Shown here piece after piece: positions 1-10,976 of a DNA stretch of 23,915 bases. How positions within the stretch are numbered: the first letter of the stretch is position 1; the number at the start of each line of letters is the position of its first letter. Origin of the DNA: a virus (Duplodnaviria; Heunggongvirae; Uroviricota; Caudoviricetes); the IMG/VR virus record IMGVR_UViG_2554235190_000005, positions 1-23,915 of that record, one strand, 5' to 3'. The notes beneath the pieces were generated by a model. The model was not told the DNA's origin, ran no database searches, and saw nothing but the letters and a program-made list of their open reading frames with translations. Both the position numbers and the translations under genes were made by a program.

Positions 1-1053
1 TTACGGGGTAATGCCAACCGCTGCCGCCACTTTGTCGCCACTTGGCAGCGTTGCCAGAGGATTGAAACGGAGCGCCGTTTCCAGATGATCCGGTGCCAGA
101 TGTGCGTAACGCATAGTCATTTTTATATCGTGGTGTCCGAGAATTTTTTGTAAGGCCAGAATGTTTCCACCCGACATCATGAAGTGCGCCGCAAACGTAT
201 GGCGCAGAACGTGTGTGAGTTGACCGCGAGGGAGCACGATAGACGTTTTTTCCATCACGGATAAAAATTGAAAATAGCAGTCTGTGAAGAAATTGAACCC
301 ATCAAGCGCCATGATCTCTTCGTAAAGCTCTTTACTGATAGGGATGCTTCTGTTTTTCTTCCCCTTCGTTCTGACAAAGGTAATTCGGTATTTGGTCACC
401 TGTGAGCGGGTAAGATTTACGGCTTCACGCCAGCGTGCGCCTGTGCTTAAGCATATCTTAACTACCAGTGCCAGAATTGGGTCCTGACGTTTGCAATCAG
501 CCAGCAATTCAACAATCTGCTCATGGGTAAGCCATGCCATCTCTTTTTCTGCGATGGTGAATTTTCGCATGTTCTCCAGTGGGTTCGGATACGACCATTC
601 GCCCAGACGGGATAGTTCGCTAAAAACACTACTTAGATAGCTTTGCTCCAGGTTAATGGTGACCGGGCTTGCTCCTTTCTTCCATTTCTCGCTGAAGTAG
701 ATCTCGCCTGTCAGGCGTTTATCTCGATAGTGGGCAAACATTTTAGAGGTGAGATCGGTTGCAAGAGGATTGCCCAGAGCGTCAACCATCAACAGCAATT
801 TGTCATAGACATGCTGCCCAGCTGTCAGAGATTTACCATGTAGTTTGAACCATAGCTCAACCACGTCTTTCAGTGTTCGACGATCCACTGATTCACCCAG
901 CCAGGGCTTTGCTTCGGTTTCTTCCATCGTGTGGCGCTCAAAAGCCAGTGCTTCGCCTTTGGTGACGAATTGTTTACGCACACGACGCCCACTTCGTCCG
1001 GCGGGGTAACATTCGCAAAGCCATTTCCCAGTGGTGAGTTTTCGTACTGCCAT
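1..1053 (-). CDS. int: Tyrosine recombinase (phage integrase), P2/186 family
   Basis: ORF 1..1209 (-) has a conserved C-terminal catalytic region (..CLSTGARWREA.., ..LRHTFAAHFMMSGGNILALQKILGHHDIKMTMRYAHL..). Start set at the ATG at 1051-1053 (MAVRKLTTGKW...), preceded by GGAGGG about 8 nt upstream on the coding strand; the longer frame back to 1209 is probably untranslated. Stop is at 1..3, so attL should lie just outside the window. Confidence 0.85.
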   Translation of the reverse strand: MAVRKLTTGKWLCECYPAGRSGRRVRKQFVTKGEALAFERHTMEETEAKPWLGESVDRRTLKDVVELWFKLHGKSLTAGQHVYDKLLLMVDALGNPLATDLTSKMFAHYRDKRLTGEIYFSEKWKKGASPVTINLEQSYLSSVFSELSRLGEWSYPNPLENMRKFTIAEKEMAWLTHEQIVELLADCKRQDPILALVVKICLSTGARWREAVNLTRSQVTKYRITFVRTKGKKNRSIPISKELYEEIMALDGFNFFTDCYFQFLSVMEKTSIVLPRGQLTHVLRHTFAAHFMMSGGNILALQKILGHHDIKMTMRYAHLAPDHLETALRFNPLATLPSGDKVAAAVGITP

Positions 1054-1241
1054 AAAAAATGCCCTCCAGTAGAGAGCATTTTCACTGTATGTATAACCAG
1101 TGTCAATGTATGAAATTCTACGACCATACATCTCACTGAAGCCATAATTAAGTTGGCTATTCTTTTTGCTATGTGAGCATGTAACTTTTGCGGTTAACCT
1201 GCGGCTCATTTTTATTTTAGACGCAGATATAAAAGCAAAAG

Positions 1242-1433
1242 TTATCGTGAGTTTTTAGTACAGATTTTTTTGGATTTACTAATAGTTCCATCATTGCAAA
1301 CGAATTTGCCATCTGAGGTACAGTGAGAAACACCTCCCTTTTTCCCTGAGCAGGGATAATTTCTAGCATAGGTAGTTAGTGGGTTTAATAACAAAGAACA
1401 TGACAAAACCACAAAAAATACCTTACCAAGCAT
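1242..1433 (-). CDS. Small secreted Cys-rich, Lys-rich protein (63 aa), possible moron between cI and int
   Basis: ATG at 1431-1433 with GGGAGGA about 5 nt upstream; N-terminal hydrophobic signal-like segment ([23 protein letters not shown]) followed by a short mature part with 4 Cys; AT-rich compared with the flanking int. Confidence 0.5.
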
Positions 1434-1448
1434 AGTTTCCTCCCGGTA

Positions 1449-2105
1449 CTATTTAACATACTTGACTGTTAAACTTATAATTTTACCAATTATTTCAATG
1501 TCTTCTATCTTGCATTCGAAGGCTCTGTTTCCACCCTCGACGAAGATTCTTCCACCGGGTAAACGAGTAATGTCACGGATCGTTATTTCGCCATCAATAC
1601 TTATTACCCATTTACCATCACGTATATCATCAAATTCTTTATCACAAATAAATTCAGAATTGTTATCTGTGATGACAAAAGGTTTTTTAAACGTAGAGGG
1701 TAGAAATCCCTTATCAAAAATATAAAAACCGTCTTTCTGCAATGCTCCATCAGACAATAAATATTTTTCTACTTCTATAGTATTTGTATTTGCTGATGCT
1801 TGCTTTGAACCATGCCCTGTTGTTAGCCAATTAAGCGAGGTGCCCGTTTCAAGGGCGCACTGGATTACCCAATCTGCTGGAAAAATATCACGCATATAGC
1901 GCGTTGCCATGGTGCTCTTAGAAACACCTAAATGATCACATAGAGCCTGACGGGTACCGAACCCATATGCTTCAACTAAACGTTCTATGGCTTTCTTACC
2001 GCCGCTATTGAAATCCACAAGTCCTCCAAAGAAATCCAAAATTCGTTGACAGATTCCAAAAGCGATCTTAAAGTTGAACCAGAAGTGTTCTTTTGGAGCC
2101 TTCAC
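1449..2105 (-). CDS. cI: CI-type immunity repressor (186-like)
   Basis: 218-aa ORF divergent from the apl/cII operon; helix-turn-helix-like segment (..TRQALCDHLGVSKSTMATRYMR..); position and orientation match 186 cI. Start at 2105 is a GTG (no in-frame ATG until after the HTH), so the exact N-terminus is uncertain. Confidence 0.7.
   Translation of the reverse strand: MKAPKEHFWFNFKIAFGICQRILDFFGGLVDFNSGGKKAIERLVEAYGFGTRQALCDHLGVSKSTMATRYMRDIFPADWVIQCALETGTSLNWLTTGHGSKQASANTNTIEVEKYLLSDGALQKDGFYIFDKGFLPSTFKKPFVITDNNSEFICDKEFDDIRDGKWVISIDGEITIRDITRLPGGRIFVEGGNRAFECKIEDIEIIGKIISLTVKYVK
2046..2074 (+). promoter_or_regulatory. Candidate rightward lytic promoter (pR-like): TTGACA-N17-TAAAGT
   Basis: TTGACA at 2046-2051, 17-nt spacer, TAAAGT at 2069-2074, upstream of apl (ATG 2164). 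In 186 pR and pL are face-to-face, so a promoter inside the cI 5' region is expected. Motif match only. Confidence 0.3.
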
Positions 2106-2163
2106 TACTAATCACGACAAACAACGGCTCGCCACAAGCCATATCTAGAAGGAATGTTGCCTT

Positions 2164-2367
2164 ATGACACCTAACATTTCAATTACTCTGAATACACCAC
2201 ATGTCACAATCGAACGTTATAGCGAACTGACTGGCCTTTCTATTGATACGATTAACGACATGTTGGCTGATGGCCGACTACCTCGTCATCGTCTTCGTAA
2301 AGACAAAAAACGTGAAAAGGTAATGATTAACCTGGCTGCTCTGACTGTTGATGCTTTGTCTGCTTAA
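2164..2367 (+). CDS. apl: Apl-like excisionase / lytic-switch regulator (Cox/Apl functional analogue)
   Basis: 67-aa first gene of the rightward operon, divergent from cI, directly upstream of cII; small basic protein (..[15 protein letters not shown]..). Assigned by position and size, not by sequence identity. Confidence 0.55.
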
Positions 2368-4232: not shown

Positions 4233-5086
4233 GCACCATCCTGAAATGGGCGGGAAATAAAACCGCCATTATGCCAGAACTGAAAAAATACCTTCCTGCT
4301 GGCCCGCGACTGGTTGAACCTTTCGCGGGTTCCTGTGCTGTGATGATGGAAACGGATTATCCCAGCTATCTGGTTGCGGATATTAATCCTGATTTAATCA
4401 ACCTCTATAAAAAGGTTGCCGCTGATTGTGAATCGTTTATATCTCGCGCCAGAGTTTTATTTGAGATCGCAAACAGGGAGGTGGCTTATTACAACATAAG
4501 GCAGGAGTTTAACTGCTCAACTGAAATTACTGATTTCATGAAAGCGGTATATTTCCTGTATCTTAATCGTCACGGTTACCGTGGTTTATGTCGCTATAAC
4601 AAGAGCGGGCATTTCAACATCCCCTACGGTAATTATAAAAATCCGTATTTCCCTGAAAAAGAACTTCGCACATTTGCAGAAAAAGCCCAGCGAGCAACGT
4701 TTATCTGCGCCAGCTTTGATGAAACGCTGGCGATGTTGAAGGCGGGAGATGTGGTGTATTGCGATCCGCCGTATGACGGTACGTTTTCCGGCTATCACAC
4801 TGATGGTTTCACTGAAGATGACCAGTATCACCTGGCATCCGTTCTTGAACATCGGTCATCAGAAGGACATCCAGTCATTGTTTCTAACAGTGACACATCC
4901 CTGATCCGTTCGCTGTATCGCAATTTTACTCACCACTATATCAAGGTAAAACGCAGCATCGGTGTGGCAGCTGGCGAGGGTAAATCAGCAACAGAAATCA
5001 TTGCTGTTTCCGGGCCGCGCTGCTGGATGGGATTTGATTATTCGCGTGGCGTGGATAGTTCTGCCGTGTACGGAGTACGTGCATGA
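4229..5086 (+). CDS. DNA adenine methyltransferase, Dam/D12 class (N6-adenine MTase)
   Basis: N-terminus [23 protein letters not shown]...[10 protein letters not shown] and a DPPY catalytic motif (..[10 protein letters not shown]..); ATG 4229 overlaps the upstream stop, GGAGGTG RBS. Confidence 0.85.
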
Positions 5087-7497
5087 GTCATGCCGATATG
5101 AACAACTGCTGCGGCTTTAACGAGGCTGCCGCAGCATTCTCATGGAACAGCCCGAAAAAGGCCATTAACCCTTATCTGGACCCGGCGGAAGTTGCGCCGG
5201 TTTCTACGCTTTCAAACCTGATCACTCTGTACGCTGCCGATAACGAGCAGGAACAGTTGCGCCGCGAGGCACTGAGTGATCAGGTCTGGGAGCGTTATTT
5301 CTTTAATGAATCACGTGATCCTGTCCAGCGCGAAATGGAGCAGGATAAGCTCATTAGCCGGGCAAAGCTGGCGCATGAGCAGCAGCGTTTTAATTCAGAC
5401 ATGGTCATTCTGGCGGACGTCAACGCCCAGCCTTCCCATATCAGCAAGCCGCTGATGCAACGTATTGAATACTTCAGCAGCCTGGGCAGGCCAAAGGCTT
5501 ATTCCCGCTATTTACGTGAGACGATTAAGCCATGTCTGGAACGACTGGAGCATGTACGCGACAGTCAGCTATCTGCATCTTTTCGCTTTATGGCAAGCCA
5601 TGAAGGGCTGGACGGCCTGCTGATCCTGCCTGAAATGAGTCAGGATCAGGTGAAACGCCTGTCCACCCTGGTAGCTGCGCATATGAGTATGTGCCTTGAT
5701 GCAGCTTGTGGTGATTTGTATGCCACCGATGACGTTAAGCCAGAAGAAATCCGCAAGACATGGGAAAAGGTGGCAGCGGAAACCCTGCGTCTGGATGTCA
5801 TCCCACCTGCGTTTGAGCAACTCCGTCGGAAAAGAAACCGCCGTAAACCCGTGCCCTATGAACTCATTCCGGGTTCGCTGGCGCGTATGTTGTGCGCCGA
5901 CTGGTGGTACCGGAAATTATGGAAGATGCGTTGCGAATGGCGGGAAGAGCAGTTGCGCGCTGTTTGCCTGGTCAGCAAAAAAGCATCTCCTTATGTCAGC
6001 TATGAAGCCGTGATGCATAAACGTGAGCAGCGCCGTAAGTCGCTGGAGTTTTTCCGTTCTCATGAACTGGTGAACGAAGACGGCGACACGCTGGACATGG
6101 AGGATGTGGTAAACGCCAGCAGCAGCAACCCTGCGCATCGCCGCAATGAGATGATGGCCTGTGTTAAAGGTCTGGAGCTTATCGCGGAAATGCGCGGTGA
6201 CTGCGCCGTTTTCTACACTATCACCTGTCCGTCGCGTTTCCATTCCACGCTAAATAACGGCAGACCAAACCCGACCTGGACAAACGCGACGGTAAGACAA
6301 AGCAGCGATTATCTGGTCGGCATGTTTGCTGCATTTCGTAAGGCGATGCACAAAGCCGGGTTGCGCTGGTATGGCGTGCGGGTGGCTGAGCCGCATCATG
6401 ATGGCACAGTTCACTGGCACCTGTTGTGTTTCATGCGCAAAAAAGACCGCCGTGCCATCACTGCATTACTGCGTAAGTTTGCCATCCGTGAAGACCGCGA
6501 GGAGCTGGGCAATAACACTGGGCCGCGCTTTAAGTCTGAGTTGATTAACCCGCGCAAAGGAACGCCGACAAGCTACATCGCGAAATATATCAGTAAGAAC
6601 ATTGACGGTCGTGGTCTGGCTGGCGAGATCAGCAAGGAAACGGGTAAATCTCTGCGTGATAACGCTGAATACGTGAATGCCTGGGCGTCTCTGCATCGTG
6701 TTCAGCAATTCCGCTTCTTTGGTATTCCGGGGCGTCAGGCTTACCGTGAACTTCGCTTGCTGGCTGGTCAGGCGGCAAGGCAACAGGGTGACAAAAAAGC
6801 AGGTGCGCCGGTACTGGATAACCCGCGTCTTGATGCCATTCTGGCTGCTGCTGATGCTGGTTGTTTTGCCACCTACATCATGAAGCAGGGCGGCGTACTG
6901 GTTCCCCGTAAATATCACCTCATCAGAACCGCTTATGAAATCAACGAAGAGCCGACCGCCTATGGCGATCACGGCATTCGTATTTATGGCATCTGGTCAC
7001 CCATTGCAGAGGGCAAGATCTGCACTCATGCAGTGAAGTGGAAAATGGTTCGTAAAGCCGTTGACGTTCAGGAGGCGGCAGCCGACCAGGGCGCTTGCGC
7101 CCCTTGGACTCGTGGCAATAACTGTCCCCTTGCTGAAAATTTGTACCAACAAGGGAAAGACAAATCAACTGATGGAGATACCAGAACGGATATCACCCGC
7201 ATGGATGACAAGGAGTTGCACGATTACCTGCACAGTATGAGCAAAAAAGAGCGCCGGGAACTGGCAGCAAGGTTACGCCTGGTGAAACCGAAACGGCGTA
7301 AAGACTACAAACAGCGAATTACAGACCATCAGCGACTGCAGCTCGTGTATGAACTGAAGTCCAGGGGATTTGATGGCAGCGAGAAAGAGGTCGATTTACT
7401 GCTTCGCGGCGGCAGTATTCCGTCAGGAGCAGGGCTACGTATCTTCTATCGGAACCAGCGTTTGCAGGAAGATGATAAGTGGCGGAACCTGTATTAA
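5083..7497 (+). CDS. A: Replication initiation protein (P2 gpA-like rolling-circle endonuclease)
   Basis: 804-aa ORF at the end of the early operon; size and position match P2/186 gene A. Start overlaps the dam stop; the true start could be a downstream Met. Confidence 0.8.
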
Positions 7498-8465: not shown

Positions 8466-9077
8466 ATGGATTTAGTCTTTAAAGTTCTGGCTTCGTTGGG
8501 TGGGGTGTCTTTTGTTGCATCTGGCATATTTGTTTGGATCGGGAAAGTTTATTTAGAAAGATATAAGTCGCGGCTAAACAAAGATATTGCTGAATTTCAA
8601 TCACAACTGAGTGCAACTAATGAAAGAATAAAGGCTAAGTTAGACAATTCTGTTTATGTAACGAAAGCGTATTTTGATAAGGAGTTATCAGCATATAGTC
8701 TCATTTGGAATTCGATGTTTGAAACCAGAGAAAGCGTGCTTAAGCTGAGGCCTGCGCTGGATCATGTTGACCCCAACGAACCATTTGAAGAGAGAAAATT
8801 TAGAAGGTTGAAAGTTTTTTCTGATGCATTTAACACTTTTGTTACAAGTGTTGAATCTAACAAACCGTTCATCTCACCAGAGGTTTATATAATCTTGGAC
8901 CGTTTCCGGAAGGAATGCCTTTCAGAGTCAATATCGTTTAAGCATAGCGATCCAGAATTTGACGGGCAAAATTATTGGAAAGAGGCGGAGTTGAACCATA
9001 CAACCATCATCAAGCTTTTTGATGAGACGTGTGATGCAATTCGAGACAGGATGCACACATTAACTGTGGTTACGTAG
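8466..9077 (+). CDS. Membrane-anchored hypothetical protein (203 aa), AT-rich cargo
   Basis: N-terminal transmembrane-like helix (LASLGGVSFVASGIFVWIG) then a charged soluble domain; strongly AT-rich versus the phage backbone; TTATAAT-like -10 element upstream. Confidence 0.6.
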   Translation: MDLVFKVLASLGGVSFVASGIFVWIGKVYLERYKSRLNKDIAEFQSQLSATNERIKAKLDNSVYVTKAYFDKELSAYSLIWNSMFETRESVLKLRPALDHVDPNEPFEERKFRRLKVFSDAFNTFVTSVESNKPFISPEVYIILDRFRKECLSESISFKHSDPEFDGQNYWKEAELNHTTIIKLFDETCDAIRDRMHTLTVVT

Positions 9078-9293: not shown

Positions 9294-10976
9294 ATGGATG
9301 ACTATCTATCTCGGAGAATGTGCATGTCATTGGACTATATCAAAGAACAGTTGTCAGACTTTATTTCATCTGCAGAACCTGAGGTAATGGCTATTCAGGG
9401 TGAGTGGGGGATTGGGAAAACCTATACTTGGAATACTTTCTTAAAGGAAAATAAAAATAAGATTGCATTTAATAGATATAGTTACGTCTCTCTTTTTGGT
9501 GTTAATTCATTGGACGCATTAAAATACTCCATCTTTGAAAATACAATTACAAAAGATTTTATTGGAAATAAACCTAATTTAAAAACAGCAACACAAAATG
9601 CAAAGGGGCTTCTTGAATCCTGCACTAGAAAGACCGCTCGTGTGTTAAAAGAAACACCTGTTGTGAAAAATTTTACTACGACACTTGAGTCAATGTCATT
9701 TATGTCAATTACTAATGTTATTGTAGTCATAGATGACTTAGAAAGACGTGGTAAAAATTTAGAAGTGAAAGATGTCTTAGGGTTGGTTTCTTTATTGAAA
9801 GAACAAAAAAATTGTAAGGTGGTTCTTTTACTTAATAATGGGACAAGTGGTATGGATGACTACTCCACTTATAAAGAAAAGGTTATTGATAGAGAGATTA
9901 CCTATAACCCTACGCCAGAAGAATGTGCAGCTATAGCATATAAAAATGATTCTGATGTTCATAAATTATTAAGCAAATACTCCATTTCTCTAGGTATTAA
10001 AAATATTCGTATACTGAAAAAAATAGAGCGGTTTTTGCTAGCCTTGTTACCTGGTATTAACGTTAATTTTGATAAAATTGCAAATGAAGTCGCACGCTCC
10101 TTAACTTTGTATTGTTGGAGTCATTACGCATTTACTCCAGATGGAGATGTACCATCATTGGAGTATATTAGAAATATGAGAAATATCTATATGCGTGATG
10201 AAAAAGAGGATGGAAAAGAAAAAAAATGGCATAATACTTTGCTTATATATGGTTATAAAAAAACAAACGAACTTGATGAAGTCCTTATAGACATGGTTAA
10301 GCATGGATATATTGATATGAATAATTTTCAAAGGCAAGTAAGTCTAAGGAATGATGAACTTATCCGTGATAGTAAGCGAGGTTCACTGTTTGAAGCATGG
10401 AAGCTTTTCTATAATTCATTTGAAGATAACCGAAATCAGGTTGTTGATAATCTATATCAAGCGGTGGTTGGTGGGATAGAGTATGTAACTCCAAGTGACT
10501 TGGATAGTGTTGTCGGACTGTATAGAGATTTAGATGAAAATATTAAAGCAAGTGAATTAATAAGTAAATTTATTAATTACGGCAATGATGCTCTTAAGGA
10601 ATATGTCCAATCTATTTACATGAATGTTCATCCTATAAAAGATGCTGAGTTAAAGTCAAAAATCCAAGATTATTCTACTAATTTAAATCTGGATGGTTCT
10701 ATAAAGGATGTTCTAATAAAATTATCAAGTCAGAATGGTTGGTCTGATAGGCACGAGGAAATATTGGATGCTGCCTCAGAGGGTGACTACTATGATTTAT
10801 TTAAAAAAGTCATTCTTGAAGGTGGTGATTCAATAATAGCCACTGCTCTTAAGTTTGGTGGGTATAGCAATGGTTCAGATAGAATGAAACGCATCGGAGA
10901 AAAAGCGAGAAATGCTTTGATAAGAATTGGAAATGAGTCGAAGATTAATAAAATACGTGTTAGACGGTATTTGTAA
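9294..10976 (+). CDS. KAP-family P-loop NTPase (560 aa), AT-rich cargo; candidate defence / abortive-infection protein
   Basis: Walker A GEWGIGKTYTWN and Walker B-like VIVVIDDLER in the KAP arrangement; very AT-rich; the true start may be the ATG at 9324 (GGAG about 9 nt upstream). Confidence 0.8.
   Translation: MDDYLSRRMCMSLDYIKEQLSDFISSAEPEVMAIQGEWGIGKTYTWNTFLKENKNKIAFNRYSYVSLFGVNSLDALKYSIFENTITKDFIGNKPNLKTATQNAKGLLESCTRKTARVLKETPVVKNFTTTLESMSFMSITNVIVVIDDLERRGKNLEVKDVLGLVSLLKEQKNCKVVLLLNNGTSGMDDYSTYKEKVIDREITYNPTPEECAAIAYKNDSDVHKLLSKYSISLGIKNIRILKKIERFLLALLPGINVNFDKIANEVARSLTLYCWSHYAFTPDGDVPSLEYIRNMRNIYMRDEKEDGKEKKWHNTLLIYGYKKTNELDEVLIDMVKHGYIDMNNFQRQVSLRNDELIRDSKRGSLFEAWKLFYNSFEDNRNQVVDNLYQAVVGGIEYVTPSDLDSVVGLYRDLDENIKASELISKFINYGNDALKEYVQSIYMNVHPIKDAELKSKIQDYSTNLNLDGSIKDVLIKLSSQNGWSDRHEEILDAASEGDYYDLFKKVILEGGDSIIATALKFGGYSNGSDRMKRIGEKARNALIRIGNESKINKIRVRRYL

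Follow-up and report, generated by a model that had tools for sequence, protein, structure and literature searches.

A YdcA-family gene between cI and int of a 186-like E. coli prophage and a tentative protective role for its predicted periplasmic product

Organization and expression of the cI-int interval

The DNA analyzed here, referred to as the window and comprising a whole stretch of 23,915 nucleotides (IMG/VR record IMGVR_UViG_2554235190_000005), was the left part of a 186-like (Peduoviridae) prophage, and identical E. coli chromosomes placed its integration site next to rcdA. On the minus strand, the order of elements was cI, an open reading frame (ORF) of 63 codons running from ATG to TAA, a structured 188-nt spacer, and int (Table 1). 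The cI stop codon (1449-1451) was separated from the ATG of the ORF by 15 nt. An earlier interpretation made from the letters of the window (the sequence-only reading) had described a small ORF with a strong ribosome-binding site inside a cI-int operon, and this description held, as a GGAGG preceded the ATG, the repressor gene was located upstream and the integrase gene downstream on the same strand, and no terminator was predicted before the ORF. The ORF listing extended cI to a GTG at 2105, and for int it gave a 402-aa form with its ATG at 1209, whereas position 1053 is the int start in RefSeq and in related phages. Translation of the 402-aa form, the extension of which overlaps the structured spacer, is probably not to be expected.

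Table 1. Coordinates of the features in and around the cI-int interval of the window
Feature	Position	Strand	Remark
P2/186-type tyrosine integrase (int), 350 aa by RefSeq start	1..1053	-	downstream gene of the operon
Hairpin of 13 bp, then U6 and the int AUG	1055..1083	-	predicted by folding
Cargo module	1132..1448	-	absent from phages sharing the integrase
YdcA-family ORF, 63 aa	1242..1433	-	identical to RefSeq WP_000900883.1
TAA stop of the YdcA-family ORF	1242-1244	-	
Codons of the mature 40-aa peptide	1245-1364	-	
Codons of the signal peptide	1365-1433	-	
Shine-Dalgarno sequence GGAGG	1439-1443	-	within the 15-nt spacer between cI and ydcA, 5 nt before the ATG
186-type repressor cI (Phage_CI_repr + Phage_CI_C)	1449..2018	-	directly upstream, same operon
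Putative pL: hexamers TTGAAA (2182-2177) and CAACAT (2159-2154), 17-nt spacer	2154..2182	-	pL-like
apl/cox	2164-2367		divergent from cI; cII next

The pL-like hexamers upstream of cI were located at offsets from the apl/cox ATG (2164) equal to those of the annotated pL of phage 186. A promoter and terminator scan found no minus-strand terminator from cI to int, and the hairpin at the start of int was visible by folding only. The lysogenic operon of phage 186 is annotated as pL-cI-int-orf69-terminator, with cI abutting int; those of K139 and HP2 are annotated as PL-cI-orf2-glo-int and pL-cI-...-orf1-int, respectively. Synteny with these three operons suggested that the ORF is co-transcribed with cI from pL, in agreement with the lysogenic transcription that the sequence-only reading had proposed. 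As the ORF has its own GGAGG to drive translation and no terminator is predicted between it and cI, its product is likely made alongside the repressor from pL in every lysogen.

The minus-strand RNA from 1040 to 1260 was unusually structured (z -5.6). Within it, the 3' arm of the 13-bp hairpin (dG -17.8 kcal/mol, z -4.8) sequestered the int Shine-Dalgarno sequence GGAGGG (1062-1067), which precedes the int AUG at 1053. As modeled by folding, this hairpin is probably an attenuator or terminator acting on int, and it would probably leave cI-ydcA as the main lysogenic message. The hairpin fell in the part of the interval that is common to phages with other cargo.

The 63-aa product was not new to the databases. 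RefSeq labels the identical protein as "YdcA family protein," and a profile search matched NCBIfam NF007463 over the full length of the protein (115.8 bits; cut-off, 93). PHROG 6000 was matched with an E value of 1.9e-34, and Pfam PF27300 is precomputed for near-identical proteins and relatives. A scan with a Pfam-A copy that lacks PF27300 gave only a chance match of the ORF to GULLO2 (E 0.075). The YdcA family corresponds to NF007462, NF007463, and NF007464 (together PRK10040), to PF27300, and to PHROG 6000. Both the exact sequence and its families are therefore already catalogued, and the family is uncharacterized. This membership, together with a chromosomal paralogue in E. coli, had been missed by the sequence-only reading.

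The alleles of the ORF pointed to strong purifying selection. The 85 E. coli copies represented 10 nucleotide alleles. These carried 18 synonymous codon changes, and replacements were limited to V5F and T20A in the signal peptide, to R24K, to a single allele carrying I57T/T59I, and to the tail at the C-terminus, so that within the cysteine core (residues 25-58) the I57T of that single allele was the only replacement. For the most divergent allele pair, pN was 0.058 versus a pS of 0.366. An overlapping 50-aa ORF (1217-1369) was set aside because the pattern of synonymous substitution matched the 63-aa frame. We are confident in assigning the ORF as a functional YdcA-family gene.

Predicted export, disulfides, and relatives of the YdcA protein

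The N-terminus of the protein consisted of MLGK, 12 hydrophobic residues, and NPLTTYA, thus carrying one lysine and ending in a T-Y-A site, and the hydrophobic core had a mean Kyte-Doolittle value of 2.7 over 9 residues. By these heuristic features, the leader showed the n-, h-, and c-regions of a Sec-type substrate of signal peptidase I. The same heuristic found alanine or glycine at -1 and a small residue at -3, 2-3 residues ahead of the conserved PCS motif, in 46 of 47 aligned relatives. Signal peptides were divergent among relatives, and the mature core was nearly invariant from gamma- to alpha-proteobacteria; leaders that are not conserved are the usual signature of cleavage. A lipoprotein of the Cor, Llp, or TraT type was considered and rejected, as there was no lipobox, the fifth cysteine (C12, inside the signal peptide) was not conserved, and N-Y-P precedes the first conserved cysteine.

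The mature part comprised 40 aa, among them 7 Lys, 2 Arg, 2 Asp, and 4 Cys, and had a pI of 9.7. The four cysteines (C28, C38, C46, and C58) were invariant in 48 sequences, as were P27, K32, F44, G49, S52, S54, and K55, and the phage protein contained the core motif of the family, PCSGxKGG..C...F.C.DG..S.SK..C, which is almost unchanged from Enterobacteriaceae to Neisseria, Comamonas, Rhizobium, and Acinetobacter. The AlphaFold2 model was confident over residues 31-60 (pLDDT 84-91) and contained a beta-hairpin (35-38/44-46). On these grounds, the precursor would use Sec for export, and signal peptidase I would cleave it after Ala23, yielding a strongly cationic peptide of 40 residues and 4.3 kDa in which the four invariant cysteines may form two disulfides around the short beta-hairpin. 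Cleavage at Ala23 and the two disulfides are predicted from the features of the family and from the homologous lobe of Dis2 described below. The view of the sequence-only reading that the ORF is a genuine gene for a small, secreted, cysteine-rich protein with a lysine-rich mature part was supported, with secretion predicted from these heuristic features.

A close known counterpart is E. coli K-12 YdcA (b1419), which belongs to the same family and likewise has a signal peptide followed by a core of ~35 aa with four invariant cysteines. The mature core of the phage protein was identical to that of K-12 YdcA at 26 of 35 positions (~74%). The phage copy falls in the NF007463 subfamily and not in NF007462, for which it scored below the cut-off (68.5 versus 118 bits). 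The two differ in setting, as K-12 ydcA is chromosomal, beside cybB-rydC and under stress control, whereas the phage copy lies behind cI. The K-12 paralogue has been described as periplasmic (PMC7642389; PMC5493296; bioRxiv 10.1101/2024.02.12.579971).

The only relative with a solved structure was Dis2 of Legionella pneumophila (Lpg0823; PDB 7MUC/7MUD). Homology was indicated by phmmer (E 3e-5) and by the family profile (E 2.4e-5), and a Dis2-like protein carries PF27300. Dis2 (7MUC chain AN) was also the top Foldseek match in the PDB, with a probability of 0.87 yet an E value of 0.23, and hhalign on a truncated sequence gave a probability of only 50%. All four YdcA cysteines aligned to lobe 1 of Dis2, with the motif GG..C...G..VCN.G in common, and the Dis2 model begins 1-2 residues past an AFA site equivalent to the predicted cleavage site of the phage protein. 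Dis2 is a periplasmic subunit of the Dot/Icm outer-membrane cap, part of a type IVB secretion system. It adjoins the outer membrane, serves there as an accessory docking subunit that contacts the lipoproteins DotC, DotD, and DotK, and can be dispensed with in assembly (PMC8486379; PMC12716638). Its signal peptide is cleaved, and its small beta domain is pinned by disulfides (PMC8486379). The same studies called Dis2 Legionella-specific and without structural neighbor (PMC8486379; PMC12716638), and since they report no similar structure, the link between YdcA and Dis2 appears to be new, with modest statistics (E about 1e-5). The likeness does not extend to the whole protein, as the phage protein consists of one lobe with 4 Cys, whereas Dis2 is built of two similar lobes in tandem that five disulfides pin. 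Genes for type IV secretion were found neither in the window nor near YdcA genes in 67 species-level loci. By these comparisons, the phage protein would be a domain homologous to a Dis2 lobe and not an orthologue of Dis2.

The family comprised 445 clusters at 50% identity. In 5 of the 24 longest family proteins examined, the YdcA domain was followed by a nuclease domain, the order being signal peptide, YdcA domain, nuclease, and the nucleases, periplasmic or secreted, represented three unrelated folds (Endonuclease_NS in three proteins, SNase in one, and PLDc_2 in one). Other architectures were also present. Five members contained two to three tandem YdcA repeats, a betaproteobacterial two-module form had a second, cysteine-rich module at its C-terminus, a Providencia form carried long Lys/Ala/Glu repeats, and one member was fused to a VasL domain. 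On a plasmid of Citrobacter sp. TSA-1, a 133-aa protein with a YdcA-like stretch (4926-5327 of the extracted locus) was encoded directly after tssE in a type VI cluster. The "ydcA" of the Neisseria gonococcal genetic island is a coincidence of naming; it is an unrelated toxin-antitoxin gene that is dispensable for DNA secretion.

Distribution, linkage to cI, and the cargo slot

The 317-bp module (1132..1448) was searched for in 5426 complete E. coli genomes at a nucleotide identity of at least 90%, and it was present in 628 of them, or about 12% (roughly one in nine), including BL21(DE3). The sequence-only reading had named absence or disruption of the ORF in close relatives as an outcome that would speak against it. 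The cI type of the window was found in 638 E. coli genomes, and 628 of these kept the ORF region, so that this outcome did not arise; one copy, in strain 730V1, was disrupted and truncated by IS5. The module was better conserved than the adjacent cI, as all 628 copies had at least 90% nucleotide identity, versus 80-90% for cI in 481 of 638 genomes, which means that the same group of ydcA alleles is common to diverged immunity types. The copy in BL21(DE3) (874330-879644) belongs to a decayed prophage in which cII and the replication gene are pseudogenes and cI, the YdcA-family gene, and int are intact.

In IMG/VR, ~500 viral contigs encoded a relative, as found by two scans; one returned near-identical E. 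coli copies only, and the other had the HP2 protein as its lead sequence. In Haemophilus phage HP2 (NC_003315), an unannotated YdcA-family ORF of 60 aa was located between cI and orf1(S) at about 2486-2668 on the minus strand, with a start codon that overlaps the stop of cI (TAATG), and the same match was found in phage S2. The order cI followed by ydcA was kept in 16 HP2-like viral contigs, and cI-ydcA-int was found in prophages of three Yersinia species. Linkage to cI is near-obligate in two Peduoviridae lineages. The family also occurred outside this arrangement, as siphophages of Moraxella and Acinetobacter carried a member amid their head and tail genes, and plasmid carriers included large plasmids and one mobilizable MOBQ plasmid of 3.9 kb and 5 genes.

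A Pfam scan of the immediate neighbors in 67 species-level loci found no recurrent partner gene. Neighbors were heterogeneous, the commonest being integrase (6), phage cI (5), and cytochrome b561 (5), the last of which marks the chromosomal ydcA locus; ten more neighbors of the size of cI or int were checked, and none was either cI or an integrase. The absence of a conserved partner disfavors a toxin-immunity pair or a multi-gene system. The UniRef label "conjugal transfer protein," which the cluster of this protein bears, was discarded, as its sole support was a TraD-like gene adjoining on one small plasmid.

Comparison with sister phages outlined the borders of the module. Identity to vB_EcoM-813R9 and to Klebsiella phages ended at 1111-1131, and these phages had an integrase ~97% identical to that of the window, a different repressor region, and other cargo in the cI-int interval. 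In vB_EcoM-813R9, the cargo was PD-Lambda-1 (E 3e-120), and in Klebsiella phage 4LV2017, it was a 349-aa protein without assigned identity. In strain 09-02E, a PDC-S20/KAP NTPase (E 3e-171) was inserted right after Cys58, leaving a YdcA protein of 60 aa. The cI-int interval is a swap site for defence cargo in 186-like phages, and similar hotspots have been reported between cI and int of K139-like phages (PMC9122126; Rousset et al. 2022) and between integrase and primase of P2 (bioRxiv 10.64898/2026.02.27.708500). The YdcA protein itself matched 0 defence families of PADLOC-DB 2.0 at E <= 0.01, and unlike swappable cargo, ydcA behaves as a quasi-core partner of its cI type. The window also had two plus-strand genes in the classical hotspot of P2, which lies between the portal gene and replication gene A. 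One (9294-10976) encodes a 560-aa protein that matched PDC-S49, a candidate defence family of PADLOC (E 1.5e-25), and the 203-aa product of the other (8466-9077) had no match.

Possible roles of the peptide in the lysogen

Our preferred physiological reading, which we hold tentatively, is that the peptide acts as a protective factor at the envelope of the lysogen, most likely by hindering the entry of foreign DNA. The peptide would work alone, given that no conserved partner gene was found. A docking or binding role for the domain is suggested by analogy with Dis2 and with the nuclease fusions, and the ligand of the free phage copy could be a conserved one located near the outer membrane, or it could be a polyanion, for example DNA in transit. 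The DNA kept out would be that of a superinfecting phage or, possibly, DNA arriving by conjugation or transformation. The specific mechanism, a docking or binding peptide at the periplasmic face that hinders DNA entry, is a possibility that we consider less likely than not. Taken together, a YdcA-family gene expressed from pL with a protective mechanism was the best overall explanation that we could give, and we offer it with reservation. A broader version, which we consider unlikely, would make the YdcA domain a hitherto unrecognized periplasmic module for binding DNA or for docking onto machines of the outer membrane, common to Dis2, to periplasmic nucleases of three folds, and to hundreds of phages and plasmids; the phage copy linked to the repressor would then represent a new and very widespread class of proteins for the exclusion of superinfecting phages or of entering DNA, present in about 12% of sequenced E. 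coli.

A close rival ranks just behind exclusion and concerns stress tolerance of the envelope. By supplying a constitutive second copy of the host's stress-induced periplasmic YdcA, the prophage could shield or stabilize a conserved envelope component and increase fitness under acid, organic-acid, and stationary-phase stress, a case of classic lysogenic conversion without any conflict between phages. The identity of the phage core to that of K-12 YdcA at 26 of 35 positions fits such a role, as do the chromosomal location of many family copies and the extreme conservation across classes, which would suit a universal envelope target. Loss of ydcA renders E. coli W sensitive to 300 mM 3-hydroxypropionate, and the gene has been reported to be acid-induced under YdcI (PMC7642389); in addition, a constitutive sigma-S promoter maps to the rydC-ydcA spacer (PMC5493296). 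However, the host already has ydcA, and stress tolerance leaves unexplained why the gene is coupled to cI in two Peduoviridae lineages, including the translational coupling in HP2, why a mobilizable plasmid of five genes carries it, and why nuclease fusions arose repeatedly. We consider this role rather unlikely as the primary one, yet a serious competitor.

The remaining explanations were far less probable. A disulfide-knotted inhibitor of periplasmic or exogenous proteases, comparable to ecotin or to plant Pin-II, was suggested by recurrent PDB matches to Pin-II over the DG-FVC-G-S...K-C stretch and by Providencia copies located between prc and an M48 peptidase gene; yet the matches were non-significant (E 0.24-1.8; profile E 0.26), there was no fold match, and the four cysteines do not make up the eight-cysteine Pin-II domain, so that we regard inhibition as very improbable. 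The sequence-only reading had included a toxin among its candidates, and the small size, four cysteines, and net charge of about +7 of the mature peptide would indeed suit a secreted toxin, a bacteriocin, or a defensin-like antimicrobial peptide. That option fared poorly and is slightly less credible still, as no immunity or export partner was conserved in the 67 species-level loci, a Sec signal alone would leave the peptide in the periplasm, selection was purifying rather than diversifying, the mature peptide was extremely conserved across proteobacterial classes, and the gene is single-copy and chromosomal in many genera. Least credible of all was that the interval serves as a cis-acting RNA or spacer tuning int, with the ORF as an incidental or neutral hitch-hiker. 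The strongly structured RNA and the hairpin over the int ribosome site speak for a regulatory element, but the ORF lies upstream of the structured part, its variants differ almost exclusively by synonymous changes, and the same peptide is kept by homologues whose nucleotide surroundings are unrelated.

The gene and its family were already catalogued, and a specialist would expect prophages to carry small secreted morons. The phage member, a predicted periplasmic peptide of 40 residues, is nevertheless a well-defined "known unknown" that would be made in every lysogen of a prophage type present in roughly one in nine E. coli genomes, among them BL21(DE3). The YdcA protein is conserved from Rhizobium to Neisseria and is tied to the repressor in two Peduoviridae lineages. 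New leads from this study are the putative homology to Dis2, the N-terminal fusion of the domain to three kinds of periplasmic nuclease, and its location in a slot for defence cargo. If the function of the peptide were found, it would also offer a first way into the functions of Dis2 and of host YdcA.

Envelope-level exclusion has a positional precedent in Glo of Vibrio phage K139, a P2-related member of the Peduoviridae; Glo is a small periplasmic protein annotated as involved in phage exclusion (PMC4870250). The phage YdcA gene shares with glo its placement between cI and int, a lysogenic transcript from the pL-type promoter (by synteny), a signal peptide, and the predicted compartment of its product. 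The two proteins differ in that Glo has 137 aa, a different composition, and no sequence kinship to the YdcA protein; an hhalign comparison gave a probability of 1.6%, with only the signal peptides aligning. As synteny with the lysogenic operons of 186, K139, and HP2 places the ORF on the pL transcript, the suggestion of the sequence-only reading that the ORF encodes a candidate lysogenic-conversion or exclusion factor was a reasonable one. Two further systems, to which the YdcA protein is not known to be homologous, resemble the proposed role in part. The rexAB genes of lambda are repressor-linked exclusion genes, in which a protective function is co-transcribed with the repressor in the lysogen, and Sp of T4, a small protein of the periplasm, interferes with DNA entry by blocking one of its steps.
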